Assembly (NCBI GenBank): GCA_943353835.1
Contig: CALRBA010000003.1
Coordinates: 1-61,730 of the forward strand
Direction of reading: 5' to 3'
DNA from: Candidatus Nomurabacteria bacterium
GTDB lineage: Bacteria; Patescibacteriota; Minisyncoccia; Phycocordibacterales; Phycocordibacteraceae
Length of the DNA: 61,730 nucleotides
This document shows positions 1-25,978 of the stretch, piece by piece. Numbering within the stretch: the stretch's first letter is position 1; each line of letters begins with the position of its first letter. The notes below the pieces were generated by a model. The model ran no database searches, had not been told where the DNA came from, and saw only the letters and a list, made by a program, of their open reading frames with translations. The position numbers were made by a program, and so were the translations under genes.

Positions 1-2015
1 GCTTTCTTTTTGCCTTTCTCAGAAACAAGGTCAGACCTTTGGGAACTTGCATTAAGGTCTGACCTTGTTTCTGGTGGCACTTCAGGGAGCGCCATCTCCA
101 CATACGGCCCGAAGCGTCCCGTCTTTATATAAACAGCGTCGCCGGTCTCGGGGTGTACACCGATTGGCTCGTCACTTTTCAGCTCCGCACCGTCTTCCAT
201 GCGTGCGCCGAGACAATCAGGATACTTCTTACAGCTCATGAAGACACCTCCGCGTCCGAGCTTATTCTCCATCGCACTACCACAGAGCGGGCATGGAAAT
301 TCTTTGGGAGCATCGCCGAGCGACGTCGCCTTCGGAAGTTTATCTTTCGCTCGCACAGCCTTTTCAAATGGTCCATAAAATTCGGTTAATGTCTCTTTAT
401 ATCCGCGTTCTCCGCGAGCAATCTCGTCAAGTTTGTCCTCCATCTCCGCGGTGAATGTGTCGCTCACATACTCTGGAAAATTTTCTTCCAGCCAGCCCGA
501 GACGACCATGCCTGTGGCCGTCGGCTTCAGCGCTCTCGCAAGTTTTTCTACATATCCGCGGTCTTGGATGGTCTTCATAATAGAGGCGTAGGTTGATGGA
601 CGTCCAATTCCTCTTTTTTCCAATTCTTTAATCAATCCTGCTTCGGTATAACGATTTGGCGGTTCGGTCTGTTTCTCTTCAGCACCAAGCGAGAGGAGGT
701 CGAGCGGGTCGCCACTGGCAAGCTTCGGGAGCTCTACATCCTCGCCTCGCGACTTCGTATCCAGCGCGAGCCAGCCAGCGAAGAGGACGCGGGAGCCGTT
801 GGCAGTAAACAAGGGGATTTCTTTATTTGCTTTCGCGACGACGTTCGTGCGCATAATCTTCGCAGGAGACATCTGAGAGGCGAGGGCGCGTATACGGATA
901 AGTTCGTAGAGTTGCACTTCGTCCGGAGTAGAACCCGCGCGTTTATGAGAAGGGTCAGTGGGGCGGACGGCTTCGTGCGCCTCCTGTGCGTTCTTACTCG
1001 TCGTCTTATACGCGCGCACCTGCAGATACTCTTTACCAAACTCTTTTTCTACAGCACTCGCTATCTTCGCGACCGCTTCGGTGCCGAGATTCACCGAATC
1101 GGTGCGCATATAGGTGATATGTCCCGCCTCATATAATTTTTGTGCTGCGCGCATTGTGCGTGAAGGTGCGAATCCGAGTCTCGTTGAAGCAGTCTGCTGA
1201 AGCGTTGAAGTCGTAAATGGAGGACGAGGATTACGGTCTTCGGCTCTTTCTGTAACATCGCCGACTTTCCATACGGCACTCCTGCCGGCTTGTACAATTC
1301 TTTCAGCTTCTTCATATGTGGCAGGCTGTTCTGTGCAGGTTGTAGACAAGGTTAAACCTTGAGAATTCTGACCAAGGTTTAACCTTGTCTTAAAGAGTGC
1401 AGAGAGGACGAAATAGGTGACGGGTATAAAAGCTTTAATTTCTCGCTCGCGTTCCGCCAGGATGCGAAGAGCAGGAGATTGTACACGCCCAGCTGATAAA
1501 CCGTAGCGCACTTTTTTCCAAATCAAACCGGACAAGTCATAACCGACGATGCGGTCTAATACGCGCCGCGCTTCTTGCGCACGGCGCAAATTCTCGTCTA
1601 TGTTTCTCGGATGCGCTATTGCATCTTTTATCGCATCCTCTGTTATCTCGTGGTAAACAACACGTTTAATCGGTTTGGTTTTTATTTTTTGAGATTTGGA
1701 ATTTCCGAGTTCATCTCTGATGATCTCGGCGATGTGCCACGCAATAGCCTCTCCCTCACGGTCTGGGTCGGTCGCGAGATATATCTCGTCGGCCTTCTCT
1801 ACAGAGCGCTGTATCTTCTCTATCACTTCGCGTTTATCAGCGGAAATAACGTAGTGCGGAATAAACCCGCCTTCAATATCCACCGCGTCTTTATTACTCT
1901 TTGGTAAGTCGCGCACATGCCCGACAGAAGCAATGACATCGTAGTCTTTACCTAAATATTTCCCAATCGTGCGTGCCTTTGTAGGGGACTCTACAATGAG
2001 TAATCGTTTCATCAT
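1..2015 (-). CDS. topA: DNA topoisomerase I (type IA), runs off the left window edge
   Basis: Manual minus-strand translation (absent from the ORF track because no stop falls in the window): MMKRLLIVESPTKARTIGKYLG (Toprim), GLSAGRVQSPA, KLYEAGHITYMRTDS (catalytic Tyr), C-terminal CPLC zinc ribbon and GRFGPYV repeat. Confidence 0.96.
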   Translation of the reverse strand, partial: MMKRLLIVESPTKARTIGKYLGKDYDVIASVGHVRDLPKSNKDAVDIEGGFIPHYVISADKREVIEKIQRSVEKADEIYLATDPDREGEAIAWHIAEIIRDELGNSKSQKIKTKPIKRVVYHEITEDAIKDAIAHPRNIDENLRRAQEARRVLDRIVGYDLSGLIWKKVRYGLSAGRVQSPALRILAEREREIKAFIPVTYFVLSALFKTRLNLGQNSQGLTLSTTCTEQPATYEEAERIVQAGRSAVWKVGDVTERAEDRNPRPPFTTSTLQQTASTRLGFAPSRTMRAAQKLYEAGHITYMRTDSVNLGTEAVAKIASAVEKEFGKEYLQVRAYKTTSKNAQEAHEAVRPTDPSHKRAGSTPDEVQLYELIRIRALASQMSPAKIMRTNVVAKANKEIPLFTANGSRVLFAGWLALDTKSRGEDVELPKLASGDPLDLLSLGAEEKQTEPPNRYTEAGLIKELEKRGIGRPSTYASIMKTIQDRGYVEKLARALKPTATGMVVSGWLEENFPEYVSDTFTAEMEDKLDEIARGERGYKETLTEFYGPFEKAVRAKDKLPKATSLGDAPKEFPCPLCGSAMENKLGRGGVFMSCKKYPDCLGARMEDGAELKSDEPIGVHPETGDAVYIKTGRFGPYVEMALPEVPPETRSDLNASSQRSDLVSEKGKKK
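20..73. repeat. AAGGT-N3-ACCTT palindromic element, copy 1, in frame in topA
   Basis: cagaaacaaggtcagacctt-N14-aaggtctgaccttgtttctg; 20-bp arms; 54 nt. Confidence 0.9.
1344..1390. repeat. AAGGT-N3-ACCTT palindromic element, copy 2, in frame in topA
   Basis: agacaaggttaaaccttg-N11-caaggtttaaccttgtct; encodes TRLNLGQNSQGLTLS. Confidence 0.9.
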
Positions 2016-2071
2016 TTGTTAACTCATAGCGCGTATACCTATATATGGTCAAGTGCGCATTGTTCGCTGGC

Positions 2072-2842
2072 TCACTCAACTTCCACTCGTATCGGGTGAT
2101 GGTCGGAGCCGATTCGGTCTGAGAGAACCTCGGCATTTTTTATCGTAAACGAATGCGAGACGAGGATGTGGTCGAGCTGACTTCCGCCGAACGAATGAGT
2201 CACCTTCCCGCGAAGCGGGTTTATGAGCTCGTGCTCAACGAAGCGTCGTTCAATATGTGTACGTTCGCGTCGATATAGGAAAGCATCACTCACCCGACCG
2301 CCGAGAAGCCAACTCAATATCGAGACATGTGGTGCCTCGATGGTATTGAAGTCACCGCAGACGATAGTGGGAAGGCTCGGGTCGCGTTCAGCCAGAGACT
2401 GTTCAAATTCGCGAAGTCGTTTCTCAGGTGTGGCGAGGACGAGATGCAGATTGAATATGCGTACTGTGCCCGCGGACGTGACTACGTCAGCGAACAGCGC
2501 CGCCCGATTCGTTCGCTTCGACCATCCGAGAGGGCTTAACAGCCACACGAGAGCCTTCGCTCGCCACGGGAGTTCGGGCCAATAATCCGGGAAGGGTATT
2601 CTCTTGCTTTGTACAATCTCATTACGCGATAGAATAACTATCCTATGAGTGCTCGGTACCCTGAACAAATGGTTCGCATCCACCGTTTCCACGAGGTGGT
2701 AGGGAAGCGAGTGGAGTCGCTCGAGAAACGTTTCAGGAACTTCTTGCAAACAGAAAATGTCAAAATCGCTTTCAGAGATAAATTTAAACGCACGGTCCAG
2801 TTCGCGGTTACGGAAGAGAATGTTCCAAGAATAGATTTTCAT
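2072..2842 (-). CDS. Endonuclease/exonuclease/phosphatase (EEP) family protein
   Basis: SWNI, FCLQEV, NLHL, CGDFN, LDHI and SDHHPI motifs. Confidence 0.9.
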   Translation of the reverse strand: MKIYSWNILFRNRELDRAFKFISESDFDIFCLQEVPETFLERLHSLPYHLVETVDANHLFRVPSTHRIVILSRNEIVQSKRIPFPDYWPELPWRAKALVWLLSPLGWSKRTNRAALFADVVTSAGTVRIFNLHLVLATPEKRLREFEQSLAERDPSLPTIVCGDFNTIEAPHVSILSWLLGGRVSDAFLYRRERTHIERRFVEHELINPLRGKVTHSFGGSQLDHILVSHSFTIKNAEVLSDRIGSDHHPIRVEVE

Positions 2843-2848
2843 ACTTAT

Positions 2849-3706
2849 TTATACGCGATGCCATGCGCTGAATTCTTCTTTAATAAGCCCGCGCAACTCT
2901 AGTGCTACAAGGGCGGTTAATACTTCGCCAGCGGCGCCGGAGGCGCCGCGGAGAATCTCATCGCGAGTCATCGGCTCGTCCAACATATTCCAGATAACGA
3001 GTTCAGCGTCTTCAAGGTCGCTTGGCGCGACACCTATTGAAGCGCTTTCGCGTGGTGCGATATGTAACGCTTCAAGAATGTGTAGAGGGTCGCTGATAAG
3101 CGCGGCACCGAGACGGATAAAGAGATGTGAACCGAAGGAGTGCGGGTCAGCAATACGATGCGGGATGCAGAGCAAGTCGCGATTGTATTCACCAGCGAGA
3201 CGCGCGGTAATAAGCGTGCCAGACTTCTGTCCTGCTTCAATAATCAACACAGCGTCGGAGAGTCCGACCATAATCCTGTTGCGCTCGGGGAAAAAATGTA
3301 CACGCGAGAGAGTATCGGGAGAATATTCGGAAAGAAATCCTCCCCCGGCTTTTAAAATTTCTTTCGCGAACGCGCGATTACTCCTCGGGTAGAGTACATC
3401 ATCGCCGAGTCCAGAGCCAGGCACCACGAGTGTATGTAAACCAGCAGATAACGCTGCTTTATGCGCACAAGTATCGGTGCCGAGCGCTAGGCCAGAGACA
3501 ATAGAGATAGGGTAGCCGGCGAGGCCTGTAATTAACTTCTCACACGCCTCTTGTCCGTAGCGCGTCATCGCACGGCTACCCACGACGGTTAGCATCTTAT
3601 GTCCAGAGGGAGGCAATTCACCACGTACCCACAACCTCTTCGGTGGCTGTGGTATCTCCAATAGTTGTGCAGGCCATTCACTCTTCTCCAGTTCTCGAAT
3701 CTCCAT
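2849..3706 (-). CDS. dprA: DNA processing protein DprA/Smf
   Basis: VVGSR, IVSGLALGTD, FPERNRIMVGLS, EAGQKSGTLITA; adjacent to topA. Confidence 0.95.
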   Translation of the reverse strand: MEIRELEKSEWPAQLLEIPQPPKRLWVRGELPPSGHKMLTVVGSRAMTRYGQEACEKLITGLAGYPISIVSGLALGTDTCAHKAALSAGLHTLVVPGSGLGDDVLYPRSNRAFAKEILKAGGGFLSEYSPDTLSRVHFFPERNRIMVGLSDAVLIIEAGQKSGTLITARLAGEYNRDLLCIPHRIADPHSFGSHLFIRLGAALISDPLHILEALHIAPRESASIGVAPSDLEDAELVIWNMLDEPMTRDEILRGASGAAGEVLTALVALELRGLIKEEFSAWHRV

Positions 3707-3729
3707 AGGTGCAGTATACTATTCAATAT
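3707..3729. promoter_or_regulatory. Putative bidirectional -10 element shared by dprA and serS
   Basis: Palindrome AGTATACT at 3713-3720 gives TATACT on both strands, 6 nt from the dprA ATG and 9 nt from the serS ATG. Confidence 0.65.
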
Positions 3730-4998
3730 ATGTTGGATATACATTTCATACGCGAGAATGCGGACATCGTTAAGGAGGGGGCGGCGAAGAAGCATATTGA
3801 GGTTGACCTTGACCGTCTCATCAAGGTTGATGACGAGCGCAAGCTACTGCGACAAGAGCTCGATGCAAAGAAGGCAGAGCAGAATCGGCGGAGCAATGAG
3901 ATTCAGATTTTGAAGGATGTTGAGCGTGAGAAAGTTATTGAGCAGATGCAACATCTTAAGTCGGGCATGGCGGAGAGCGAAGAGAAATTGAAGACGGTGA
4001 TGGTTGAATGGCAACAGCTAATGCTCACCGTTCCGAATATTCCGGATATGTCGGTACCGGATGGCGAAAGCGATGCGGATAACATGGAAGTAAAGAAGTG
4101 GGGCGAGCCAACGGCGTTCGGGTTTACTTCAAAAGGGCACATTGAATTAATGCTTGCGCTTGATATGGCCGATTTCGAACGAGGCGCAAAAGTCGCTGGA
4201 TTTCGTGGCTACTTCCTCAAGGGTGATGGCGTGCTTCTCACAAATGCCATCTGGCAACTCGCACTCAAATTTTTCACCGCAAAAGGATTTACACCGATGA
4301 TTGTTCCCTCGCTTGTGCGACGAGAGGCTTTGATTGGTACAGGATTCCTTCCGCAAAGCGAAGATGATCTTTATAAAGTGCAGGATGAACTGTACTTGGC
4401 TGGTACAGGAGAAGTTGCGACGATGGGCTACCACATGGATGAGGTGCTTACGAAGGAAGAGCTGCCAAAAAAGTATCTTGCGTTCTCACCGTGCTTCCGT
4501 CGCGAGATCGGTGCTCATGGTAAGGATGTGAAAGGTCTCATTCGTGTTCACGAGTTTTATAAGTTCGAACAAGTGATTCTATGTGAAGCTAGTCACGAAG
4601 GCTCGGTCAAGTACCATGAGGAACTGACACGCAACAGCGAAGAGTTTATTGAACTTTTGAATATCCCGTACCACACTGTTGTCAATTGTGGCGGTGACCT
4701 AGGCTTGGGTCAGGTGAAGAAGTATGACATCGAGCTTTGGGTACCAGGAGAACAGACATATCGCGAAATCGGCTCCGCATCATATTTTCACGATTTTCAG
4801 ACGCGCCGGTTGAATATTCGATATAAGGATGCGGAAGGGAAGCTTCAATACGCACATTCGCTCAATAACACTGCAATCCCGATACCGCGCATTCTGGTTT
4901 CTATAATTGAGAACTATCAACAGGCTGACGGTACCATTAAAGTACCCGACGCTTTAGTGCCCTATGTTGGAAAGAGCGTTATCGGGGGAGCGCAGTAA
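3730..4998 (+). CDS. serS: Serine--tRNA ligase
   Basis: MLDIHFIREN start, PCFRREIG, GLIRVHEFYKFEQ, KYDIELWVP, HSLNNTA; start set at ATG 3730. Confidence 0.97.
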   Translation: MLDIHFIRENADIVKEGAAKKHIEVDLDRLIKVDDERKLLRQELDAKKAEQNRRSNEIQILKDVEREKVIEQMQHLKSGMAESEEKLKTVMVEWQQLMLTVPNIPDMSVPDGESDADNMEVKKWGEPTAFGFTSKGHIELMLALDMADFERGAKVAGFRGYFLKGDGVLLTNAIWQLALKFFTAKGFTPMIVPSLVRREALIGTGFLPQSEDDLYKVQDELYLAGTGEVATMGYHMDEVLTKEELPKKYLAFSPCFRREIGAHGKDVKGLIRVHEFYKFEQVILCEASHEGSVKYHEELTRNSEEFIELLNIPYHTVVNCGGDLGLGQVKKYDIELWVPGEQTYREIGSASYFHDFQTRRLNIRYKDAEGKLQYAHSLNNTAIPIPRILVSIIENYQQADGTIKVPDALVPYVGKSVIGGAQ

Positions 4999-5803
4999 CG
5001 AGCGGCTCGCAGTGCGGCGCCGTACTCGGCGCCGAATGGGTCTCATATTTTTTTTAATCCTGCTCCTGCTCCTGCTTACTGCAACTATTTACGGGCTTCG
5101 GCAGAGTGCTGCGCGCATTTCACACATAGAAGTTATTAGTGTGGACGCATCGCTTTCTGGATATGCGACAAGCAGGATGCAAGGAAACTATTTCGGTATT
5201 ATTCCACGTGATTCCATATTTTTCTTCCCCGAAGAGAGCATTCGCGCAGACATACTTTCATCTCATAATGACATTGTCGCAGTTTCAATATTAAGAAACG
5301 GCTTTACTGGAATTTTAATAAAAGCGGATTACCGCGTTCCTGTCGCGCGTTGGTGTGGGGACGCAACAAGGTTCAACCTTGAGGATTCGGATTTAAGGTT
5401 GAACCTTGTTGCGGACTGTTATTTTTTTGATACTGACGGATTAATATATTCGGCGGCTACAACAACGCAACCGATAAATTCTTTTGTTGTTTATAATGCG
5501 TTACCCGTCGACGATGACCCGATTGGTTCAACTCTCCCATTTGCCAAAGATTTTCCCGCAATTTTTGACTTTGCACGGCAATTATCAACCCTTGGTTCGC
5601 AGGTAGTTTCTGTCGCCATTCATGACGGAGAAGTGGACAACCGTCTCGCGAGTGGTACGCGTGTCACCTATGTTCTTGGTCGCGAACAAGTCGCCTTCAC
5701 CGCACTTGTTTCTGCTCGCAACAACTTCAATCTAGCTGACGGCTCGGTAGACTATGTTGACCTGCGCTTTGACGGTAAAGTGTATGTGAAGCCGAAGAAG
5801 TGA
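4964..5803 (+). CDS. FtsQ/DivIB-like bitopic membrane protein
   Basis: Basic N-terminus, one TM helix, POTRA-like segment, C-terminal DYVDLRFDGKVYVK typical of FtsQ; start uncertain. Confidence 0.65.
   Translation: MLERALSGERSNERLAVRRRTRRRMGLIFFLILLLLLLTATIYGLRQSAARISHIEVISVDASLSGYATSRMQGNYFGIIPRDSIFFFPEESIRADILSSHNDIVAVSILRNGFTGILIKADYRVPVARWCGDATRFNLEDSDLRLNLVADCYFFDTDGLIYSAATTTQPINSFVVYNALPVDDDPIGSTLPFAKDFPAIFDFARQLSTLGSQVVSVAIHDGEVDNRLASGTRVTYVLGREQVAFTALVSARNNFNLADGSVDYVDLRFDGKVYVKPKK
5362..5413. repeat. AAGGT-N3-ACCTT palindromic element, copy 3, in frame in the FtsQ-like gene
   Basis: cgcaacaaggttcaacctt-gaggattcggattt-aaggttgaaccttgttgcg; encodes ATRFNLEDSDLRLNLVA. Confidence 0.92.
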
Positions 5804-5815
5804 TACCGTTCATAT

Positions 5816-6847
5816 ATGTTCTGGAATAACTTGAAGAAACCATTCTTTGTGATGGCGCCGATGGCGGATGTCACTGATGTCGCTTTTCGAGCGTTGGTAG
5901 CCGCGCGTGGGAAGCCAGATGTCTTCTGGACCGAATTTGTCTCGGCAGATGGGCTCTACCACACCCGCGAGATAGCGAAAATGAAGGATGACGAGAATCC
6001 GCTGATGCGCGATTTATTAAAAGAGGAAGGGCAGAAGCCTATTGTTGCGCAGATTTTTTCAAACAAGCCAGAGATGATTGCTTATGCGACGAAGCTTGTT
6101 GCCGAACTTGGCTTCAATGGCGTGGATATCAATATGGGCTGTCCTGATAGAACGATAGAGAAGCAAGGTTGTGGTTCGGCGATGATCAAGACGCCCGAGC
6201 TTTCGCGCGAGATTATCCGCGCGGCGAAGGCGGCGAGTAGCCTACCCGTCTCGGTGAAGACGCGCATCGGGTACAACAAAGAATCGTTAGATGAATGGCT
6301 CCCAGCGCTTTTGTCCGCGAACCCTTCTGCAATAACGTTGCATCTACGGACAAGAAAAGAGATGTCGCTCGTACCCGCTGATTGGGAACAAATGAAAAAA
6401 GCGGTAGAAATCAGGAATCGCGTAAATCCAAGCGTACTCCTCATCGGCAATGGCGATGTGCAAAACCTTGAAGATGCGGGAGTGAAAGCCAGAGAGACCG
6501 GTTGCGATGGAATCATGCTCGGCCGCGCGATGTTCGGCAACCCCTGGGTCTTCGCGGGCCGCAAATCGGAGGACACGCCACTTGCAGAGAAACTCGCAGC
6601 GCTTCTTGAACTCGCACACGGTTTTGAAAAAATCTCGCCGCCGAAGAACTTCGCCATTTTGAAAAAGCACATCAAAGCATTCGTCACTGGCTTCGCTGGC
6701 GCCGCCGAACTCCGTGCGCAACTCATGTCAGCCGAAAACGCTACCGAACTTGAGGCAATTACGCAAAACAAGGTTCAATCCCGCTATAGCGGGATTGAAC
6801 CTTGTTTTGCGGTATACTCTCGCAATGGCGCATCAGAGTTTATATAG
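5816..6847 (+). CDS. dus: tRNA-dihydrouridine synthase (Dus family)
   Basis: MAPMADVTD, DINMGCP, PVSVKTRIG, IGNGDV, GIMLGRA. Confidence 0.95.
   Translation: MFWNNLKKPFFVMAPMADVTDVAFRALVAARGKPDVFWTEFVSADGLYHTREIAKMKDDENPLMRDLLKEEGQKPIVAQIFSNKPEMIAYATKLVAELGFNGVDINMGCPDRTIEKQGCGSAMIKTPELSREIIRAAKAASSLPVSVKTRIGYNKESLDEWLPALLSANPSAITLHLRTRKEMSLVPADWEQMKKAVEIRNRVNPSVLLIGNGDVQNLEDAGVKARETGCDGIMLGRAMFGNPWVFAGRKSEDTPLAEKLAALLELAHGFEKISPPKNFAILKKHIKAFVTGFAGAAELRAQLMSAENATELEAITQNKVQSRYSGIEPCFAVYSRNGASEFI
6762..6811. repeat. Perfect 50-bp palindrome, AAGGTT family copy 4, in the dus 3' end
   Basis: cgcaaaacaaggttcaatcccgcta|tagcgggattgaaccttgttttgcg. Confidence 0.95.
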
Positions 6848-7952
6848 AATACATCGCCCGGCGATCTTTGCGGAGGTAGTGGGGCAGGAGCAGGTGACGA
6901 AGCCATTAGAAGAGACGGCGAAATCTAAGAAGATTGGGCACGCGTATCTCTTCGCCGGCAGTCGCGGATTAGGGAAAACCTCGGTCGCGCGCATCTTTGC
7001 TGACGCCATTGGTTGTAAAGAAAACGATTTACATGAGATAGATGCGGCTAGTAACAACAGTGTTGATGCTATGCGTGCACTCATCGAAGGCGTTTACACC
7101 CTTCCGTTTGAATCCCCATACAAGGTCTATATTCTTGACGAGGTGCACATGCTTTCTAAGAGCGCATGGAATGCATTTTTGAAAACGCTTGAAGAGCCAC
7201 CCGCGCATGCAGTTTTTATTTTGGCAACAACGGAACTTGAAAAAGTTCCGGAAACGGTGCAGTCGCGCTGTCAGGTTTTTGAATTTAAAAAGCCATCAAG
7301 GCGAGGCCTTGCTGAAGTTGCTGTGAGTGTGGCTAAGAAAGAAGGATACACACTCGCACCAGACGCCGCCGAGCTTATCGCCATGCTCGCGGAAGGCTCG
7401 TACCGCGACGCGCTTTCTGTTTTACAAAAAGTTTTTGCCGTAGCAGCCCCGACGTTAAAAGTCGGGGCTCCGACCAAAAGCGTCGGAGACGTGAAAACTT
7501 TGTCGCGCGAGGTTGTTGAGGCAGCTACAGGAGCACCAAAAAGAGAACAGGTTCACGCGCTTATATCCGCGCTCGCCACGGATCCGCCGGCTGGCGGACG
7601 CGGTAAAGCGCTTGAAGCGATAGAGAAGGCGGCGAAGTCCGGCGCCGATATGAAGCTTTTCTTGGAGCTAGTGCTTGAAGCTTTGCGCGCTACTCTCCTC
7701 ATTCGCTACGCGCCCGAGCTCCACACCTCTCTCCAGAGCGAGCTCGGCGCGGACGAATTTTCTGTACTTGAATCCATGTCGGGAAGTAGTACGTCCCGAC
7801 ATGAAAAAGACCTATCTGCGCAGGCAGGCATTACTCATGTGACAATGTTGGCGTTTCTAAACGCCACCGAGCGCATCCGCTACGCGCCCATCCCCGCGCT
7901 TCCGCTCGAGCTCGCCGTCCTCGAACTTTTTCCTGACGAATCAGACAAGTAG
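6825..7952 (+). CDS. dnaX: DNA polymerase III subunit gamma/tau (short form)
   Basis: SLYRIHRP, HAYLFAGSRGLGKTS, EIDAASN, ILDEVHML, LKTLEEPP; ATG 6825 lies 6 nt after TATACT. Confidence 0.96.
   Translation: MAHQSLYRIHRPAIFAEVVGQEQVTKPLEETAKSKKIGHAYLFAGSRGLGKTSVARIFADAIGCKENDLHEIDAASNNSVDAMRALIEGVYTLPFESPYKVYILDEVHMLSKSAWNAFLKTLEEPPAHAVFILATTELEKVPETVQSRCQVFEFKKPSRRGLAEVAVSVAKKEGYTLAPDAAELIAMLAEGSYRDALSVLQKVFAVAAPTLKVGAPTKSVGDVKTLSREVVEAATGAPKREQVHALISALATDPPAGGRGKALEAIEKAAKSGADMKLFLELVLEALRATLLIRYAPELHTSLQSELGADEFSVLESMSGSSTSRHEKDLSAQAGITHVTMLAFLNATERIRYAPIPALPLELAVLELFPDESDK
7445..7488. repeat. Tandem double hairpin in frame in dnaX
   Basis: agccccgac-N7-gtcggggct overlapping ctccgac-N7-gtcggag; encodes APTLKVGAPTKSVG. 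Confidence 0.75.
7775..7828. repeat. Two adjacent palindromic inserts in frame in dnaX
   Basis: catgtcggga-N9-tcccgacatg at 7775-7803, then cctatctgcgcaggcagg at 7811-7828. Confidence 0.7.
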
Positions 7953-7969
7953 TGGTAGAGTTTATCTAT

Positions 7970-8040
7970 TGCCCGATCGTCTAATGGTAGGACAGCGGCC
8001 TTTGAAGCCGTTAATTGGGGTTCGAATCCCTGTCGGGCAG
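7970..8040 (+). tRNA. tRNA-Gln(TTG)
   Basis: Acceptor TGCCCGA/TCGGGCA, anticodon arm GCGGC-CTTTGAA-GCCGT, T-loop TTCGAAT. Confidence 0.95.
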
Positions 8041-8103
8041 CCCGAATAAAACTAGCGGGGAAATGGGGACAGTCACGATTAAAAAGTTCGTAAAAATACA
8101 AAA

Positions 8104-8349: not shown

Positions 8350-8407
8350 AAAAACAAAGAGCTGGTCAGGCTCTCGCGGGTTTATCGACCGTTTGTGTGG
8401 CGGGTAA

Positions 8408-8656: not shown

Positions 8657-8784
8657 GGAACCCCCCATTGGTAGTCAAGAATATGTGTACCCCGAGCTTG
8701 AGTTTAGCGCTTTTTGCTCTTGTCTGCACTTGACCCCAGTACCCAGTAGGTCATTTTACTAAATGAGGTGAATCTGCTGATTCA

Positions 8785-8830: not shown

Positions 8831-8846
8831 CTAGAATAACCACACT

Positions 8847-15131: not shown

Positions 15132-17060
15132 ATGGCTGAAAAAATCCCGCCGGAACAGCTACAATCAGCGCCAGAAATTTCTCCGGAAGCGCAGAGGCTT
15201 GAAGCAGAAGAGCAGAGAGATATTGAGGAAAAGGTAGATGCGAGGATTGCAACAGAAGAAGTAGGGAAAGTTGAGGCTGGCCCTGTCAGTACAGAGCCGT
15301 TGCCAGCCATGTTTCGCAGTAATCGGAAGCGTCCGAAAAACAATGAACCCACGGTCATACCTGAAGATGATCAGCTCCTGAATCTCTTTAAAGAAAAGTA
15401 TGAAGCAATAGGCGAAGCTCCGATTATTCCAGACTCGGAGGACGCTCCTACCGAATTTCTGAACAACGACCATACGTCGCTTGAGTGGCGAGAAAAATTG
15501 CGCGGGCTCATCATGGTTGCGGAGAAGAGTCCTATCGGCAGTGAGCGCGGCGAAAGTTTGAAAACGTATCTCGCAGAGCGCTCAAAAGAATTGGGCGAGA
15601 AGGCGAAGGAGTACGGACCGAAGACAGTGGCTCTTATTGGTTCTCTGAGCGAGAAATATAATAAGCTGAACTGGAAAACGAAGATTGCGGTCACTGGCGG
15701 TCTCATTGCCAGTGTTTCGCTCACTTCGGCGGCATTTCCAATAATCTCAGCGATATTGGGCGGGGCACTGTATGGGCAGCGTGTCATCGGCGGCATCGGC
15801 TTCGCGATGAACCGGCGCAAGGCGCTTGATGCGAAGATAGCTGCGAACGCAGATCACTGGCTCGCAGGGAAGTCGGAACGAGTGAAAAATACATATGCGA
15901 CCGCTCTCGCGGCAGTTTATATGGGGAGTACCGCATTTGCCGTGCATGAAGGCGTTGAAGCGTTGAATGAACTTGGAGTAAATAAATGGCTGGGGAACAT
16001 GCTCGGGCATAAGCTCGAAGAAGTACCGGCCGCAACAACTGCGCCAATCGCAGAAGCAGTAGCACCCACCCCTGCTCCCGAAGTTCCAGCATCCGTAGCG
16101 CCAGAAATCCCTCAACCCGCGGCCGCAGCGGCCGCGGACGTGGAAGCTGTCGCATCTGCACTAGCGCCAGAAATCCATGGAATTGAAGTGACCGCAACGC
16201 CAGGAAAGGGTTATGAATACATGATGAAGCGACTGTGGGAACAGTTGCAAGAAAAAGGAATAAGCACTGAACAAGTAGAAAGATTCCGAGGAAGCGATCT
16301 TGGGAAGCTTCTTGAGGCGGACGAAAAATCAGTCAACGATGTGATACATAACATCGCAAAGGAACAAGGATTCTACAAGCCCGAAGGCACAAGCGTTCAG
16401 ATCAATCTTGGCGACAAGTTAAGCTTCAACGAAGAAGGCTCAATAGTTCTTGGTAATAAGGACGAATGGATTGTCAAAGCGCCTGCAAATGCGCCACTAA
16501 CGCCGGCGTACCCTCCGGAAACAATAGTTCGTCCAGAAATACCAGTGCCTCCGCTCGCGCAGGAAAACATCGCGACCTCAGAACCGATAAAAACAGTGGA
16601 CCTGACTGAGAAACAAGCAGTAGACGAAACCGAACTGCCGACGCCACCATCAGAGAACGACAGCTCAATCGTTCGCGACGGCCAAGGGCAAGCAGTGCTC
16701 GATGGGTCGGGTGAGCCGATTCGTACCGGGACATTTGAAACGTCGCCCGGCACGAATCAGTTTGGCCTCATAGTAGAGACCGCCAAGTCGCATATTTACG
16801 CAGGTGCTGGAGAAGGGCGAACATTCGTTTTTGGCGGTACGCCGGCTGAACGCGCAAATATGATTCTGGAACATCTAACTAAAAATCCAAACAGCGTCGT
16901 TTTCGGTACAGATGATTCCGAAAAATATCGTATTCCTTGGTATCTTGTGGAAGGAAAGATTACTCCGGGTGTACCGATGCGTACGAGCGGTTTCTTCGGG
17001 TTCGGTTCCACATGGATGAAACCGCCTGGTCCTGAGGATTTGGAAAAGGTTATTAAATAA
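15132..17060 (+). CDS. Hypothetical membrane protein with Pro/Ala/Glu-rich linkers
   Basis: 642-aa ORF 5 nt after the ATPase; central hydrophobic helices; PEVPA/PEIP low-complexity tract. Confidence 0.8.
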   Translation: MAEKIPPEQLQSAPEISPEAQRLEAEEQRDIEEKVDARIATEEVGKVEAGPVSTEPLPAMFRSNRKRPKNNEPTVIPEDDQLLNLFKEKYEAIGEAPIIPDSEDAPTEFLNNDHTSLEWREKLRGLIMVAEKSPIGSERGESLKTYLAERSKELGEKAKEYGPKTVALIGSLSEKYNKLNWKTKIAVTGGLIASVSLTSAAFPIISAILGGALYGQRVIGGIGFAMNRRKALDAKIAANADHWLAGKSERVKNTYATALAAVYMGSTAFAVHEGVEALNELGVNKWLGNMLGHKLEEVPAATTAPIAEAVAPTPAPEVPASVAPEIPQPAAAAAADVEAVASALAPEIHGIEVTATPGKGYEYMMKRLWEQLQEKGISTEQVERFRGSDLGKLLEADEKSVNDVIHNIAKEQGFYKPEGTSVQINLGDKLSFNEEGSIVLGNKDEWIVKAPANAPLTPAYPPETIVRPEIPVPPLAQENIATSEPIKTVDLTEKQAVDETELPTPPSENDSSIVRDGQGQAVLDGSGEPIRTGTFETSPGTNQFGLIVETAKSHIYAGAGEGRTFVFGGTPAERANMILEHLTKNPNSVVFGTDDSEKYRIPWYLVEGKITPGVPMRTSGFFGFGSTWMKPPGPEDLEKVIK

Positions 17061-17079
17061 AAATGCTATGATTTCACCT

Positions 17080-17376: not shown

Positions 17377-17405
17377 TATAATATTCAAGTAATAATTAAT
17401 TGCAT

Positions 17406-17921
17406 ATGAATCCAACACAAACAGGTATCGCTGTCGCACTCGCTTTAACAGTAGTAGCGCTTTTCTTCATCTTTCCCGGTGCCACTCTCTTCAATAATCA
17501 GACGCCGACAGAGAGTCCGCCGATTGAGTTTAATAATCAAACAGCAGCCGCAGGAGCTGCACAACCAACTATGCCTACAGAACCAGTGAAAGAACTTATG
17601 ATGAAGGATGATGTTGTCGGCACGGGCGCGACCGCGACCGCAGGCGACAGTGTGACGGTAAATTATATCGGAGCGCTCACGAACGGCACAGTCTTTGACG
17701 CTTCTGCCAACCACGGTACTGCAGGCTTCACCTTCACGCTCGGAGTTGGGCAAGTCATTAAAGGTTGGGACCAAGGGGTTGCGGGTATGAAAGTAGGAGG
17801 GAAACGTACGCTCGTTATCCCCGCAGCGCTAGCGTACGGCCCACAAGCTGTCGGAAATGTAATCCCAGCGAACGCGGACCTAGTCTTTCAAGTGGAGCTC
17901 TTGAATGTAGAGAAGAAGTGA
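17406..17921 (+). CDS. FKBP-type peptidyl-prolyl isomerase with membrane anchor
   Basis: VNYIGAL, VFDAS, GQVIKGWDQG, LAYG, IPANADLVFQVELL. Confidence 0.95.
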   Translation: MNPTQTGIAVALALTVVALFFIFPGATLFNNQTPTESPPIEFNNQTAAAGAAQPTMPTEPVKELMMKDDVVGTGATATAGDSVTVNYIGALTNGTVFDASANHGTAGFTFTLGVGQVIKGWDQGVAGMKVGGKRTLVIPAALAYGPQAVGNVIPANADLVFQVELLNVEKK

Positions 17922-17933
17922 AGTAAATAAAAA

Positions 17934-17965
17934 AATGGGCGCGAACCGTGAGGTTTGCGCCCATT
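17934..17965. terminator. Hairpin between convergent genes
   Basis: aatgggcgcgaacc-gtga-ggtttgcgcccatt preceded by an A tract (U tract on the minus strand). Confidence 0.65.
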
Positions 17966-17975
17966 GCCGTATCTC

Positions 17976-18515
17976 CTAGTAAGGCGACTTCTGGAGGACC
18001 TTCACTTCGTAGCCAGGGAAGAGTGTCAGAACTTCGCGACCACAGTTCTCGAATGTGTACGTCTGACCACCGAGCGTCACGATGCCGTTTGCCGCACCTG
18101 CGAATCCGCTGGCGGCGGCACCGTATTTGCCGTATGCGCTCGAGCTCACGCCTGTAAAGGCCTTCGCGCCGAGTCCTACCCCGACGAATCCGGCGGCAGC
18201 ATACAGCGCTCCGTTCGCTAGTACAGCAACCAAGTTGCTCGGTCGTACGGTTCCCGTGAAGATGCGGCACGCGCGTTCAGCTTCCACCACGGCGGCAATC
18301 TGCTTAGCAGTCACGTCCCCTTTCACGAGGTAATTGACCTTGAGGCTACCCTGCGCCAGCATCCAGTCCGGAGCGGATTGATTATTCGCGACAATCGTCG
18401 CCCTTTCGCCGTCCGGCATGGTGATTGGGATGTTAATCCTCTCACCTTGTGTTGCGCACGCGCCTAACACGATGATACTCGCCAAAATGGCGATCCTGCA
18501 CAATACGTTCTTCAT
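17976..18515 (-). CDS. Putative lipoprotein with glycine-zipper-like segment
   Basis: Lipobox LGAC after a hydrophobic signal; G/A-rich hydrophobic region; SD GGAGG upstream of ATG 18515. Confidence 0.7.
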   Translation of the reverse strand: MKNVLCRIAILASIIVLGACATQGERINIPITMPDGERATIVANNQSAPDWMLAQGSLKVNYLVKGDVTAKQIAAVVEAERACRIFTGTVRPSNLVAVLANGALYAAAGFVGVGLGAKAFTGVSSSAYGKYGAAASGFAGAANGIVTLGGQTYTFENCGREVLTLFPGYEVKVLQKSPY

Positions 18516-18636
18516 GTTCAAAGACCTCCATTTTGGGGCCGTTTCAGAATTGAAGCGGTGGAACCCCGTCTAAATGCAAGGATACTCTACAATTATGATT
18601 TGTCAATACTGGTCGAGTAAGGTACGTTATAGAGTA

Positions 18637-19881
18637 ATGAGTGCTATTAATTTTAAAATAGAACAGCGCGCGCTTGGTTACCGAGAGCGCGCGGGCACAT
18701 TGACGACGCCACATGGCATTATCCGTACGCCAGCCTTCGCCCCGGTGGGGACAAAGGCCTCGGTGAAGGGCATTTTGCCGGAACAACTTGTGAAGCTCGG
18801 TGCTGAAGTGGTGCTCGCGAACACCTACCATCTCTATCTGCAGCCTGGAGAAAACACAGTGAAAAATGCCGGCGGGCTGGGGAAATTTATGGGTTGGCAG
18901 GGCCCCACGATGACCGATTCGGGCGGTTTCCAAGTCTTCTCGCTTGGCGCTGCGTTCGGCAAAAAAATCTCAAAATTTACAAGGTTAAACCTTGTCGAAA
19001 ACAAGCCTGTAAATACGCCGTCAATTTACGATGAAGAAATAGCAAGTCAGCACGGTCAACTCGCAATAATAGATGATGAGGGAGTATCGTTCACTTCGCA
19101 CGTAGACGGCTCGCTTCACCGCTTCACGCCAGAGCGCTCGGTGGAGATTCAACACGCGCTCGGTGCCGACATCTTCTTCGCCTTTGACGAATGTACGGCG
19201 CCGACCGAGCCATACGAGTATCAGAAAGAGGCGATGGAGCGTACACATCGTTGGGCGGAACGTAGCTTGAAAACGCATCGGCAGAATATTGACGCGAACA
19301 AGAAGCAAGCGATTTTCGGTATCGCACAGGGAGGACAGTTTGACGACCTTCGTCGGCAGAGTGCTAAGGCTATTGCTGAAATGGGGTTTGACGGATTTGG
19401 ATTAGGAGGCTCGTTCAGCAAGAAATACGGCGATGATTCTCTCCAGTCGGCGCTCGCGATGTTGAAGGAGTTGCCAGAGAATATGCCAGTGCACGGCCTC
19501 GGCATTGGCGAGCCCTGCGACTTGCTCGCAGCTATTTCTGCAGGTGTAGACATCTTTGACTGTGTCGCCGCCACGCGCATCGGTCGCCACAGTTCTCTCT
19601 ATACGATGCGAGGCATCATTCACTTACGCAATGGAGAATATCGTAACGATTTTTCCCCGCTCGACCCCGAGCTAGCAATAGCAGGGACGGAGACCTTCAC
19701 GCGCGCCTATGTCTCGCATCTCGTGCGTTCGGGCGAAATGCTCGGGTCAATCATCGTTTCCATGCACAATGTCGGCTTTATTTTGCAACTCGTTGCCGGC
19801 GCGCGTCAAGCAATTCTTGATGGACGTTTTGACGACTATCGTGCAGACTTCGTTCGCGACTACTATCATGGCCAATTTTAA
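18637..19881 (+). CDS. tgt: tRNA-guanine transglycosylase
   Basis: TPAFAPVGT, LANTYHL, TDSGGFQVFSL, FDEC, GVDIFDCV, HN; the CxCxxC zinc motif is absent. Confidence 0.95.
   Translation: MSAINFKIEQRALGYRERAGTLTTPHGIIRTPAFAPVGTKASVKGILPEQLVKLGAEVVLANTYHLYLQPGENTVKNAGGLGKFMGWQGPTMTDSGGFQVFSLGAAFGKKISKFTRLNLVENKPVNTPSIYDEEIASQHGQLAIIDDEGVSFTSHVDGSLHRFTPERSVEIQHALGADIFFAFDECTAPTEPYEYQKEAMERTHRWAERSLKTHRQNIDANKKQAIFGIAQGGQFDDLRRQSAKAIAEMGFDGFGLGGSFSKKYGDDSLQSALAMLKELPENMPVHGLGIGEPCDLLAAISAGVDIFDCVAATRIGRHSSLYTMRGIIHLRNGEYRNDFSPLDPELAIAGTETFTRAYVSHLVRSGEMLGSIIVSMHNVGFILQLVAGARQAILDGRFDDYRADFVRDYYHGQF
18979..18995. repeat. Single AAGGT-N3-ACCTT unit (copy 5) in frame in tgt
   Basis: acaaggttaaaccttgt; encodes TRLNLV; matches the arm of copy 2. 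Confidence 0.75.
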
Positions 19882-21904: not shown

Positions 21905-21928
21905 ATAGAGTGATATAGTTACACCGTA

Positions 21929-21948
21929 CCTGCCCCGCCACGGGCAGG
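21929..21948. repeat. CCTGCC-type palindrome in the uvrA leader
   Basis: cctgccc-cgccac-gggcagg. Confidence 0.55.
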
Positions 21949-21963
21949 AAATTTACATAGAAA

Positions 21964-24669
21964 ATGAAGAAAACAACAGCTAAAGAAGAGCATAAACCCG
22001 CCTCGCCGAAGACGTCGAGTCGAGGCGGGCACAAACACGGGAGCGACTGGCTCACCGTGAAGGGTGCGCGCACCCATAATTTGAAAAATATTGATGTCGC
22101 GATGCCGCGCGGAGCGATGACGGTTATCACCGGCCTCTCTGGCTCTGGAAAGTCCTCACTCGCCTTCGATACTATATTTGCTGAAGGACAGCGTCGGTAC
22201 GTGGAGTCGCTCTCTGCCTATGCACGCCAATTCCTAAACCAAATGGCGAAGCCAGATGTTGATGAAATATCTGGTTTGTCGCCAGCCATTTCTATAGACC
22301 AGAAGAGTCGTTCTAACAATCCGCGTTCCACGGTCGCCACGGTTACCGAGATTTATGATTACCTGCGCGTGCTCTACGCGCGCGCGGGCCAGCCCTATTG
22401 TATCCATCATGATGTTCCCATCGTGCGGCTTTCTAAAGAAGAAATGATCAAACTTGTCTTTCAGCGAGTGGAGGCAGGGAGCATGAGCAGTGCGCATGGA
22501 CCTGAAGTACTCGGCGTAGCAGTTGATAAACGCATAGTCACTATCTACGCGCCGATGGTTGTTGGGCGGAAGGGCGAGTACTACCAGCTGCTCTATGATC
22601 TCTTGAGCAAAGGCTACGAGAAGGTGGTGGTAGATGGGAAAGTGCATTCGCTCCGCGAAAAGATAGTCATGGAGCGTAATAAACGTCATGACATTGATGC
22701 GGTTGTTGATTCTATTTTCGTTTCTGAATTCGCACGCTCTACGCAGAGTGCTCGCGAACGACTCTCCGAGGCGCTAGAACTTGCATTAAAGGAAGCTGGA
22801 GGACTGGTTAAGATTAAGCACGCCGACGGTACGACAGAAACACTTTCTTCTAAATTTATTTGTCCCGAAGATGGCGCGTCTTTCCCAGAAGTTGAGCCAC
22901 GGCTCTTCTCATTCAACTCGCCGTATGGCGCGTGCCCGGCCTGTCATGGGCTCGGGACCGAGTCGCTCTTCTCAGAAAAAGTGTGTCAAGTATGTAAAGG
23001 GAAACGACTTCGCCCTGAAGCATTGAGAGTTTACCTCAAAAGCACGAAGCACGAAGCACGAAGCACAAAATTCGAAAGCCCTCTCGGGGCAAGCATCGTG
23101 GATTTTACGAATATGTCTATACGAGATGCTAAAAACTTTATTGATGACATTGAATTGTCGGAGATGAAATACGATATCGCGATGCCGATTTTGAAAGAGA
23201 TAGACGCGAGACTAACATTTATGTTGAACGTCGGCTTGGATTATTTAACGCTGAATCGCTCAGCGGCGACACTCTCTGGAGGTGAAGCGCAGAGAATTAG
23301 GCTCGCGTCTCAGCTCGGGAGCGGGCTCACCGGCGCGCTCTATGTGCTCGACGAGCCGACGATAGGTCTGCACCAGCGCGATAATGCTCGGCTCATCAAG
23401 ACCCTTCTCATATTAAAAGAGCTCGGCAACACGATTATCGTCGTGGAGCATGACGAGGACACTATTTATTCTGCCGATTACCTAGTGGACATCGGGCCGG
23501 GCGCCGGTATCCATGGAGGAGAAGTTGTTGCTTCCGGATGGCTGGATGATTTGTTGACGACGAAAGAAAATGAAACAGGCTCTGTCACCCTTTCATATTT
23601 GCGTGGAGAAAAAGAAATTCCAATTCCCGAGGAGCGTCGCACAGGAGAGAGAGGATGGTTAAAAGTTCGTGGCGCGACACTGCACAATCTCGTGAATCAG
23701 AATATTGACGTCCCCTTGGGGAAACTCGTCTGCATTACGGGCGTCTCGGGAAGCGGGAAGTCAACATTCCTCTACGACATTCTGCACCGCAATATTTCGT
23801 CACGTTTTGCGCGCCGCGAGGTGAAGCTTGAATATATCGCATCGCTCACCGGCACCGAGTATGTCAGCCGCGCGGTTCTCATAGACCAATCGCCAATAGG
23901 GCGCACCCCGCGCTCTAATCCGGCGACGTACACAGGCGCTTTCACGCACATCCGCGACCTCTTCGCGGCGACTGCCGAGGCGCGCGCGAGAGGATGGAAG
24001 CCTGGGCGGTTCTCATTCAACGTCGCTGGCGGTCGCTGTGAGGCCTGTCAGGGCAACGGTTCTATCGCGGTAGAGATGCACTTTCTCCCGACCGTGTACG
24101 TCACATGTGATATCTGCATCGGTAAGCGTTTTATGAAAGAAACATTGGAAATTACTTTCCGCGGTAAGAATATTTACGAGGTGCTCCAGATGACGATAGA
24201 AGAAGCGGAAAAGTTTTTTGGAGACATTCCAGCTATCAATGATCGTCTCATGAGCTTGAATTCAACAGGACTTCAATATTTAACACTTGGTCAGAGCGCG
24301 ACGACACTCTCCGGCGGAGAAGCACAGCGCGTGAAGATCGCAAGTGAGCTCTATCGTTCTCAAACAATGAAAACCATTTATCTGCTTGATGAGCCGACTG
24401 TAGGTTTACATTATGAAGATGTGGTGAAGCTTATTGAGATTCTACAAGAACTGGTGCGTAGAGGTAACACAGTGGTTGTCATTGAACACAATCTGGATGT
24501 GATAAAGAGCTCTGATTATATTATTGACTTCGGTCCAGAGGGCGGAGAGGGTGGCGGGAAGGTTATCGCGAAGGGCACGCCGGAGGAAGTCGCCGAGACA
24601 GACGGTTCTTACACGGGCGAATATCTAGTTAAGGTGTTAAAACGCCATGAAAAAAAGCGAATTAAGTAA
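21964..24669 (+). CDS. uvrA: Excinuclease ABC subunit A
   Basis: [23 protein letters not shown], two LSGGEAQR signatures, zinc fingers. Confidence 0.98.
23040..23077 (+). repeat. Heptamer tandem repeat (AAGCACG)n in frame in uvrA
   Basis: aagcacg x3, aagcaca, aaattcg; encodes [12 protein letters not shown]. Confidence 0.85.
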
Positions 24670-25978
24670 ATTCAATCTGCCGGATGTACCTGGGGTGTAT
24701 CTCTTTAAGAAAGGGAGGAAGGTGTTGTATGTGGGTAAGGCAACGTCGCTACGCGACCGAGTACGCTCCTACTTTGATGATGATTTGATCGCGACACGCG
24801 GCCCGCGTATCGTGGATATGGTGACGAAGTCCGATAGGGTCGCGCACGAGCCGACGCCGACTGTGCTAGAGGCACTCGTGCGCGAAGCGGCGCTCATTAA
24901 GAAATATCTGCCGAAGGCGAATGTGGACGGGAAGGACGATAAGACTTTTCTTTATGCAGTAATAACTAAAGAAAATATTCCGCGCGTGCTTGTCGTGCGC
25001 GGGAAGGATATTAATTTTAAACAGCTTACGGCTAACAGCTTGCAGCTGACAGGGCCTGTTCGCAACCAGCAAACTGCCACCTGCAAGCTGCGAGCGATAT
25101 ACGGACCGTTTCCTTCAGGCGCGCAGTTAAAAGAGGGTTTGCGTCTCGTACGGCGCATTTTTCCGTTCTTTGATACGGCGAAGCCGGTTGTAGCAACGGG
25201 TAAACATCATCAGGCAAAAATAGAATTTAACAGTCAGATTAATCAATATCCGCGAAGTTCCATATTCGCGCCTATAGGCCAGAATATGGAACAACTGAAA
25301 ATGTATCGGAAATCAATACGAAAGGTAATGCTATTTCTTTCAGGACGCGGTAAAGAGTTGCGACGGAGACTTGAAAAGGAAATGCGCGAGGCCGCGCTAG
25401 AAGAGCGGTTTGAAGATGCAGCCGAAACGCGTCGCGAGCTCTTCGCGCTGGACCATATTCAAGACGTCGCGCTCATTAAGGACGAAAATCTTGCGCAACA
25501 AGGTTCGACCTTAAATCCGAATTCCCAAGGCCGAACCTTGTTGCGCATTGAGGCGTATGATACGGCGCATCTCTCTGGGACGAACGCAATTGGCGTGATG
25601 ACGGTTGTCGTAGACGGCGCGCCGGTAAAGAAAGAATACAGAACGTTTCGTATCAGGGGTGTGAAGAAGAATGATGATATCGCGTCGTTAAAAGAAATTC
25701 TCTCACGCCGACTAAATCATCAAGAGTGGCAGTTCCCGAAGGTGATAGTAGTAGACGGCGGTAAGACGCAAAAGAAGGCGGCCGAGAGTGTACTTAAAGA
25801 AGTTGGAGTTATCATTCCTGTTGTCGCCGTTGTAAAAGACGAACGTCACCGCCCGCGCGAAGTCATCGGCGCGCGTTCCGCTGGCATTTCCGAGATGGAC
25901 GCCGTCCTCGCCAACTCCGAGGCGCACCGCTTCTCCCTCGCGCAACACCGTCGTGCCCGTTCTCGTTTGGTATACTGA
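24647..25978 (+). CDS. uvrC: Excinuclease ABC subunit C, short form without C-terminal HhH
   Basis: LPDVPGVYLF..LYVGKATSLRDRVRSYF, UVR domain, RIEAYDTAH, VVDGGKTQ, EAHRFS. Confidence 0.95.
   Translation: MKKSELSKFNLPDVPGVYLFKKGRKVLYVGKATSLRDRVRSYFDDDLIATRGPRIVDMVTKSDRVAHEPTPTVLEALVREAALIKKYLPKANVDGKDDKTFLYAVITKENIPRVLVVRGKDINFKQLTANSLQLTGPVRNQQTATCKLRAIYGPFPSGAQLKEGLRLVRRIFPFFDTAKPVVATGKHHQAKIEFNSQINQYPRSSIFAPIGQNMEQLKMYRKSIRKVMLFLSGRGKELRRRLEKEMREAALEERFEDAAETRRELFALDHIQDVALIKDENLAQQGSTLNPNSQGRTLLRIEAYDTAHLSGTNAIGVMTVVVDGAPVKKEYRTFRIRGVKKNDDIASLKEILSRRLNHQEWQFPKVIVVDGGKTQKKAAESVLKEVGVIIPVVAVVKDERHRPREVIGARSAGISEMDAVLANSEAHRFSLAQHRRARSRLVY
25021..25095 (+). repeat. Degenerate heptamer array in frame in uvrC
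   Basis: acagctt-acggcta-acagctt-gcagctg-acag...aaactgc-cacctgc-aagctgc. Confidence 0.7.
25257..25292. repeat. 36-bp palindrome in frame in uvrC
   Basis: gttccatattc-gc-gcctataggc-ca-gaatatggaac. Confidence 0.75.
25492..25547. repeat. AAGGT-N3-ACCTT palindromic element, copy 6, in frame in uvrC
   Basis: tgcgcaacaaggttcgacctt-aaatccgaattccc-aaggccgaaccttgttgcgca; 47/52 identical to the reverse complement of copy 3 (hand alignment). Confidence 0.92.

Follow-up and report, generated by a model that had tools for sequence, protein, structure and literature searches.

The window analysed here, a stretch of 61,730 bases, is contig C3 of a source genome designated G000 (533,899 bases in 13 contigs, 98.5% complete); other G-numbers refer to the genomes of relatives. 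It carries a family of short palindromes with the core AAGGT-N3-ACCTT, copies of which are located within topA, the gene for a conserved 279-aa protein, tgt and uvrC, and at the 3′ end of dus. These repeats are very probably elements of the repetitive extragenic palindromic (REP) type, including REP doublets forming hairpins (REPINs), of a system with a REP-associated tyrosine transposase (RAYT) in a 0.53-Mb Patescibacteria-like genome, where they are mostly intragenic.

All six copies listed for the window by the initial annotation, numbered here from 1 to 6 in order of position, were found in the sequence, and the inserts are read in the frames that it assigned to them. Copies 1 and 2 are REPIN-like doublets in topA (3-2015, negative strand; Pfam Topoisom_bac, 3.8e-116), encoding DNA topoisomerase I. 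Copy 1 (20-73, negative strand) has units at 27-39 and 54-66, a CAG/CTG N3 pair and 20-nt arms that are 100% complementary, with a folding z-score of -8.7 as single-stranded DNA; it is in frame in the lysine-rich C-terminal topA linker, which is hypervariable among orthologues, and is translated as ETRSDLNASSQRSDLVS. Copy 2 (1344-1390, negative strand; N3 TAA/TTA, 11-nt loop) is in frame in a hairpin loop of the topA product with the translation TRLNLGQNSQGLTLS. The REPIN-like doublet at 5362-5413 (copy 3, negative strand; N3 TCA/TGA), whose loop orientation is opposite to that of the gene, is in frame in the 279-aa protein and is translated as ATRFNLEDSDLRLNLVA; the initial label of this protein as FtsQ-like finds no backing in Pfam, where no family matched at E ≤ 0.001 and the matches at E ≤ 1 were insignificant. 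Copy 5 is a single 17-nt unit, ACAAGGTTAAACCTTGT, at 18979-18995 (no strand assigned), in frame within a variable tgt loop and translated as TRLNLV. Copy 6 (25492-25547, positive strand; N3 TCG/CGA, one arm mismatch) is a REPIN-like doublet in frame in the uvrC linker preceding the RNase H-like endonuclease domain, with the translation QQGSTLNPNSQGRTLL.

Copy 4 (6762-6811, no strand assigned) departs from the full motif that had been ascribed to all six copies. It is a variant long hairpin with perfect 25-nt arms (z-score -12.4) that retains the outer ACAAGGTTCAA/TTGAACCTTGT halves of the family around a different centre, at the 3′ end of dus and the dus-dnaX junction. With this hairpin the dus frame is extended by approximately 25 codons beyond its conserved C-terminus and runs into the start of dnaX, and copy 4 is therefore an end-of-gene or intergenic copy and not an internal one.

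Across the family, the unit is a palindrome of 13-17 nt around the core AAGGT-N3-ACCTT that is found either alone or in inverted doublets of approximately 42-56 nt with a conserved 11-15-nt spacer, each doublet folding as one long hairpin. G000 contains seven doublets and six singlets. Set in like orientation, the doublets consist of a variable outer stem of 2-7 nt, CAAGGT-N3-ACCTT, a spacer that in all seven is 11-14 nt long and resembles AAATCCGAATTCCC, AAGGT-N3′-ACCTTG, and the complementary outer stem; all six singlets are ACAAGGT-TAA/TTA-ACCTTGT. The arms of the four window doublets (20-73, 1344-1390, 5362-5413 and 25492-25547) pair over 18-21 nt with 95-100% complementarity, and the doublets have folding z-scores of -6.9 to -10.1 as single-stranded DNA; the z-score of the single unit at 18979-18995 against shuffles is -3.1. 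The resemblance reported between copy 6 and the reverse complement of copy 3 was recovered in the doublet alignment, with 47 of 52 positions identical.

The motif is strongly over-represented. Exact matches to AAGGTNNNACCTT number eight in the window, compared with a mean of 0.02 and a largest value of 1 in 100 dinucleotide-preserving shuffles, and the second unit of the uvrC copy (25527) is gained when one mismatch is allowed. With two mismatches, the 27 window matches show no excess over the 19.9 expected by chance, so that only exact and near-exact units are informative. Genome-wide, G000 contains 22 exact units of AAGGT-N3-ACCTT, where 200 codon-block shuffles yield 0.395 on average and at most 3, an excess of the kind the initial annotation had predicted over a codon-shuffled control. 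Perfect hairpins in general (stem of at least 8, loop of 3-5) are also abundant in G000, at 159 compared with 18-35 in 20 codon-block shuffles; 125 of them fall within the gene set, and for 92 the distance to either gene end is at least 60 nt.

An alignment of 21 distinct doublets from four genomes (G000, G001, G006 and G024) has a spacer that is conserved and oriented throughout, which argues for shared descent, as opposed to convergence, of the copies in unrelated genes. The N3 positions form standard pairs in 63 of 63 cells, 27 of which are changed on both sides, and 89.8% of the 441 cells pair when all stem columns are taken together. The covariation score of 0.352, compared with 0.128 in shuffles, is reached in 0 of 500 shuffles, a count that is not a probability, the sequences being related; sliding the partner by one column, a control that retains this relatedness, reduces pairing to 48%. 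Covariation between the arms and its collapse once partners are slid show that the long hairpin is a maintained feature, the conserved part of the element being the apical AAGGT-N3-ACCTT and not the foot.

The 14 G000 family loci were sorted by hand from open reading frames (ORFs), Pfam matches and orthologues. Nine are internal to genes, namely topA (two copies), the gene of the 279-aa protein, tgt, uvrC, a def-fmt fusion, a phosphoribosyltransferase-like gene, tsaD and miaA; three are at gene 3′ ends (dus, lepA, where the element follows the stop codon, and a transposase gene) and two are intergenic, one of these exactly between convergent genes. Five of the 14 loci are thus in ordinary REP positions, at gene ends or between genes. 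All nine internal copies have an open frame and leave the conserved sequence downstream in frame, and one or two of the three frames are closed in each element; the keeping of frame and the avoidance of closed frames fit survival under selection for a translated product. In G024, 18 of 24 elements are in ORFs of at least 225 aa, and nine of ten element-bearing frames scanned against Pfam were matched: UvrB, DnaG, an HhH-GPD glycosylase, TsaD, deformylase, three aminoacyl-tRNA synthetases and enolase. The hosts in the two genomes are mostly DNA enzymes (topA, uvrB, uvrC, dnaG and the HhH-GPD glycosylase) and tRNA or translation enzymes (tgt, tsaD, miaA, dus, def/fmt and the three aminoacyl-tRNA synthetases).

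Presence among orthologues, counted as distinct rows of each protein alignment, is patchy, with the inserts located in loops of variable length, and agrees with the earlier suggestion that the inserts are lineage-specific indels. Of 25 TopA orthologues, four (G000, G001, G006 and G024) carry the loop doublet; most of the others have a short turn resembling KSKAGDIA at this place, and in G009 the segment equals the filled form in length but is unrelated in sequence. A family doublet occupies the UvrC linker, which ranges from 7 to 19 residues, in 2 of 29 orthologues (G000 and G024), and G023 has a doublet of a different family. The 279-aa protein doublet is found in G000 only (1 of 25). The Tgt loop unit occurs in 2 of 27 orthologues (G000 and G046) and in G046 is an exact six-residue addition relative to the common form. 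In four further species this Tgt loop holds perfect palindromes that belong to four other families and have stems of 7, 9, 15 and 24 nt, making five hairpin families in one loop when counted across species. Spacer orientation is opposite between G000 and G024 in the uvrC and TopA C-terminal doublets, which points to independent insertion or flipping between arms, and the phosphoribosyltransferase-like gene contains a singlet in G000 and a doublet in G024.

In a structural model of TopA, the copy 2 insert is placed between strands 200-210 and 222-227, with a predicted local distance difference test score (pLDDT) below 50 at residues 215-218, and copy 1 in a tail of low confidence; the overall quality of the model is poor (mean pLDDT 65.1, predicted template modelling score 0.38), and these local placements are given little weight. 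Copy 1 is preceded by 19 nt of contig sequence, and the 3′ part of topA is found at the beginning of contig C13 (C13:1-190), such that the assembly break adjoins the 20-73 repeat in the lysine-rich linker.

A Y1 or RAYT transposase flanked by copies of the repeat, which the initial annotation had proposed looking for, is encoded at G000:C5:36367-37041. A profile search of G000 with Pfam Y1_Tnp returned two genes above the cut-off of 23, among them this 225-aa transposase at 36.1 bits. The same 17-nt palindrome is located on both sides of the gene, with a ACAAGGTTTAACCTTGT unit 44 nt upstream of the start and another over the stop codon (units at C5:36322-36336 and 37035-37049), the TAA stop being the centre of the downstream palindrome. 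The second Y1 gene encodes a 224-aa protein that is 42% identical to the first and adjoins a different palindrome pair. Among 28 aligned paralogues, the HUH histidines H81 and H83 are present in at least 90% and Y141 in all. An AlphaFold (AF2) model built on this alignment has a mean pLDDT of 91.6, and its top Foldseek match in the Protein Data Bank is 4er8_A (E 8.5e-6, template modelling score 0.68 on the target), the E. coli REP-associated tyrosine transposase with its REP hairpin, followed by ISDra2, IS608 and IS200 transposases. Of 8,000 database candidates scored against the transposase, more than 7,800 match at E ≤ 1e-10, those with names being transposases of Candidatus Paceibacterota, Kaiserbacteria, Minisyncoccia or the Patescibacteria group, a result that assigns the organism to the Patescibacteria (candidate phyla radiation).

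The association extends to relatives, for which 41 genomes from the same genus and 16 other genera of the order were searched. The exact 15-nt pattern is present in 24 of them, and the reversed-pattern control gave no matches in any genome except one each in G000 and G026. Of the 41 genomes, 30 encode transposase homologues, with a maximum of 10 matches in one genome (10 in G001 and 8 in G023), and the pattern is found in 22 of these 30 and in 2 of the 11 genomes lacking a homologue, a contrast that is descriptive only, the 41 genomes being kin. Reading 30 transposase loci by eye, one family of perfect palindromes was seen on both sides of the gene in 19, on one side in 8, some of which are cut by contig ends, and on neither in 3, the palindromes typically lying near -40 and +20 of the gene. 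Hairpins are specific to the individual clades of transposase paralogues. The AAGGT-N3-ACCTT apex is kept, with differing stem bases, in all five of the closest homologues (G024, G027, G033, G031 and G036). The G024 orthologue, 57% identical, is inverted within a syntenic locus between gyrA-like and methyltransferase genes, and the neighbours are 75-80% identical between the two loci (L033, G000:C5:34867-38541; L034, G024:C5:72247-75915). It is flanked by G024's own variant of the palindrome, with one unit inside the transposase frame and 25 units in that genome.

The transposase flanked by copies, the lineage-specific inserts and the excess of the motif support the earlier proposal of a non-autonomous, REP/REPIN-like element, and we infer that transposition is performed by the cognate Y1 enzyme. 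By analogy with the E. coli enzyme, the Y1 HUH tyrosine transposase, bracketed by two units, would recognize the hairpin on single-stranded DNA and would cut and rejoin hairpin DNA, causing copies to spread. The coding fraction of G000 is approximately 91-93% according to ORF-based gene sets, of which the greedy caller overlooked tgt and one gene on contig C4; because of this high coding fraction, most landing sites would be genes. Surviving copies would be those that keep the frame, bring no stop codons and occupy tolerant surface loops or linkers, where they would be translated as additions of 6-18 residues, and the inserts are presumably made as peptides.

Several results weigh against this interpretation. 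The filled and empty forms of the TopA loop differ by a replacement (45 nt against 21 nt) and not by a clean insertion, leaving the element boundaries undefined, and no target-site duplication is recognisable at the Tgt and TopA filled-versus-empty sites, where the flanks have strongly diverged. Among the variable flanks of the 21 aligned doublets and six singlets, no GTAG or CGTC foot tetranucleotide was found. The sole NCBIfam match of the transposase, NF047646 (REP_Tyr_transpos), reaches 36.7 bits against a cut-off of 80, and the protein is for this reason a distant relative of RAYTs and not an equivalog. Searched alone against the sequences of solved structures it had no match at E ≤ 1; the 28-sequence profile gave weak ISDra2 matches only, at E of approximately 0.1, so that among the comparisons with solved structures the fold search alone was informative. 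Relatives have up to 10 transposase paralogues per genome, unlike the 1.3-1.8 RAYT copies per replicon given by Bertels et al. 2017 (PMC5581495). Finally, sister-strain contigs from three other studies span window positions 3-7444 with copies 1-4 present and no joint; these copies are fixed and not polymorphic, and no transposition was observed.

It is unlikely that the Y1 gene with its two hairpins is instead an active IS200/IS605-like insertion sequence, of which the short elements would be internally deleted derivatives, palindrome-associated or resembling miniature inverted-repeat transposable elements, in place of REPINs served by a domesticated RAYT. The many paralogues in small genomes such as G001 and G023, the hairpins at both gene ends, reminiscent of IS200/IS605 ends, and the strong fold matches to TnpA chains (2xm3, E 3.7e-4, and 2a6o) would be expected of such an element. 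However, the top fold match is a RAYT and not an insertion sequence TnpA, and the two G000 paralogues, 42% identical and with different hairpins, are no recent gene copies. The locus is moreover syntenic in G000 and G024 between neighbours of 75-80% identity, which points to vertical inheritance, and both flanking units are one palindrome as opposed to distinct left and right ends. The Y1 HUH fold and, presumably, the recognition of subterminal DNA hairpins on single strands would be common to the G000 enzyme and IS200/IS605 (fold matches 2xm3, 2a6o and 2vjv), from which it differs in its length of approximately 225 residues with a C-terminal extension, its best fold match to a RAYT, its identical flanking palindromes, its syntenic and not scattered locus, and the lack of tnpB in the ORF list of that locus.

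Selection of the palindromes in place as cis-elements, whether sites for dimeric proteins or RNA hairpins acting in mRNA stability, termination or translation speed, is highly improbable. The strong maintenance of the hairpin, the terminator-like position of some copies just past stop codons or between convergent genes, and the fixation of copies 1-4 in sister strains are compatible with such a role, but it does not account for the conserved oriented spacer shared by copies in unrelated genes, the tie between the elements and a flanked transposase, or the patchy presence at orthologous sites. The loop is on the coding strand in 4 of 5 intragenic doublets of G000 compared with approximately 3 of 9 in G024 and is flipped between the orthologous uvrC copies, an inconsistency that argues against an oriented RNA signal. 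Scarcely credible is a scheme without any shared mobile element or new peptide, with the inserts cut out of the RNA or the hairpins generated de novo by template switching. The replacement at the TopA loop could be read in its favour, however all nine internal copies maintain the reading frame and escape the frames that are closed within the element, a constraint that excision would make superfluous; the length is just 17-56 nt, and Rfam at gathering thresholds found five tRNAs and no other family in the whole window. Local template switching would not be expected to yield a spacer common to different genes and genomes. Three other candidates were considered and rejected: DNA uptake sequences, given the far too few copies and the long, structured element; CRISPR repeats, there being no arrays; and inteins or introns, given the length of 17-56 nt and the preserved frame.

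The interpretation as a REP-RAYT system can be set beside several known ones. The REP/REPIN-RAYT systems of Proteobacteria, reportedly the subject of work by Bertels and Rainey in 2011, share with the G000 system short palindromic units that often form inverted doublets folding as a long hairpin, a Y1 HUH transposase gene bracketed by units that are dispersed in the genome, a cognate palindrome for each transposase paralogue with conserved locus synteny, and copies after stop codons or between convergent genes. In contrast to these systems, there is here no GTAG tag, the transposase scores under the NCBIfam equivalog cut-off, the units number 22 and not hundreds, and relatives have up to 10 paralogues per genome of approximately 0.6 Mb. 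Unlike extragenic REPs, about two thirds to three quarters of the loci are intragenic and in frame (9 of 14 in G000 and 18 of 24 in G024). Rickettsia palindromic elements, to which the repeats had also been compared, are similar in behaviour, being in-frame palindromic repeats in conserved genes of a reduced genome that add peptides; this likeness is drawn from behaviour alone and not from sequence family. Rickettsia palindromic elements are mostly longer, at about 100-150 bp. To our knowledge they have no dedicated transposase, unlike the G000 family, for which a cognate Y1 transposase was identified.

Intragenic REPs have themselves been described, in Di Nocera, De Gregorio and Rocco 2013 (PMC3733652). 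According to that paper, singles and dimers of GTAG/CGTC REPs are located inside known genes, where they encode approximately 20-30 residues, recur in replication and repair genes (UvrABC proteins) and in tRNA-modifying enzymes, and in some cases give flanking genes their stop codons; its authors suggest that intragenic REPs occupy flexible linkers or loops and equate RPE-4 and RPE-6 with CGTC REPs. G000 likewise has singles and doublets inside genes, including uvrC and tRNA-modifying enzymes, and the apparent leaning of the G000 and G024 hosts to DNA and tRNA enzymes echoes a remark in the same paper. As presented there, the intragenic REPs are a minority of large extragenic families with GTAG or CGTC tags in ordinary-sized genomes, whereas the G000 family is intragenic in its majority, untagged and found in a 0.53-Mb Patescibacteria-like genome, and one loop hosts different families in different species. 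REP-RAYT systems, REPINs and intragenic REPs are thus already known; no description of REP/RAYT systems in Patescibacteria or the candidate phyla radiation was found in the literature searched. The points of difference are the lack of a GTAG tag, the distant transposase, the many paralogue-hairpin pairs in very small genomes, the mostly intragenic copies and the recolonisation of loops by different families.

A REP-RAYT system would provide a concrete mechanism, with a named enzyme, for short lineage-specific insertions in the core proteins of ultra-small bacteria, a counterpart of the Rickettsia elements, and would indicate that REP systems can persist and diversify under extreme compaction by living inside genes, which bears on the debate over whether REPINs are parasites or host partners. 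Surviving insertions would provide a natural map of permissive sites in TopA, UvrC, Tgt, TsaD, MiaA and other proteins, and the elements could serve as strain markers and are a likely cause of variable loops and of contig breaks in metagenome-assembled genomes. A broader and rather doubtful proposal is that diversified RAYT-REP systems are a main source of lineage-specific variation in loop and linker length in the conserved informational enzymes of this Patescibacteria lineage, with permissive loops being recolonised by different families, doublets flipping or decaying in place, and element peptides turning into ordinary protein sequence. In a stronger form of this proposal, the bias to DNA-repair and tRNA-acting enzymes may be real and have functional consequences.

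Palindromes of other families are also found in the window. The dnaX gene (6828-7952) contains three in frame: a AGCAAGGC-N3-GCCTTGCT unit (7297-7311) of a family with 6 copies in the genome; a 42-nt block with an 8-bp hairpin (7445-7486) that is missing from sister-strain contigs; and a ATGTCGGGA...TCCCGACAT unit (7775-7803) of a family of 6, of which 4 are translated MSGRSTSRH. Around the last of these, 53 nt are swapped for 17 nt in a sister strain, and in both dnaX strain differences the net change is a multiple of three, which speaks for the REP-RAYT interpretation. Another unit of the AGCAAGGC family is inside a 417-aa frame (58634-58648), and a TTACATAGGAC-N-GTCCTATGTAA palindrome at 53366-53388 occurs twice in the genome. 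At locus L040 of G006, TTACATAGGAC-N-GTCCTATGTAA flanks the transposase cognate to the AGCAAGGC family, and no such gene was seen in G000.

Further minor features were noted. A one-mismatch match to the unit of the main family, AAGGTCAGACATT, is located at 52237-52249. Long perfect hairpins that are terminator-like occur at 27482-27531 (22-nt arms), directly after a three-tRNA cluster, and at 34220-34259 (18-nt arms). In the sister-strain contigs, the loop of copy 3 has an apparent 2-nt difference at position 5383; the sister-strain joint from 18966 to 19063 around the Tgt unit holds unknown letters and is no evidence that the unit is absent. Three stretches of approximately 100-185 nt (16649-16747, 18251-18353 and 19565-19751) have no sister-strain alignment at 85% likeness and are hypervariable segments within otherwise conserved genes.

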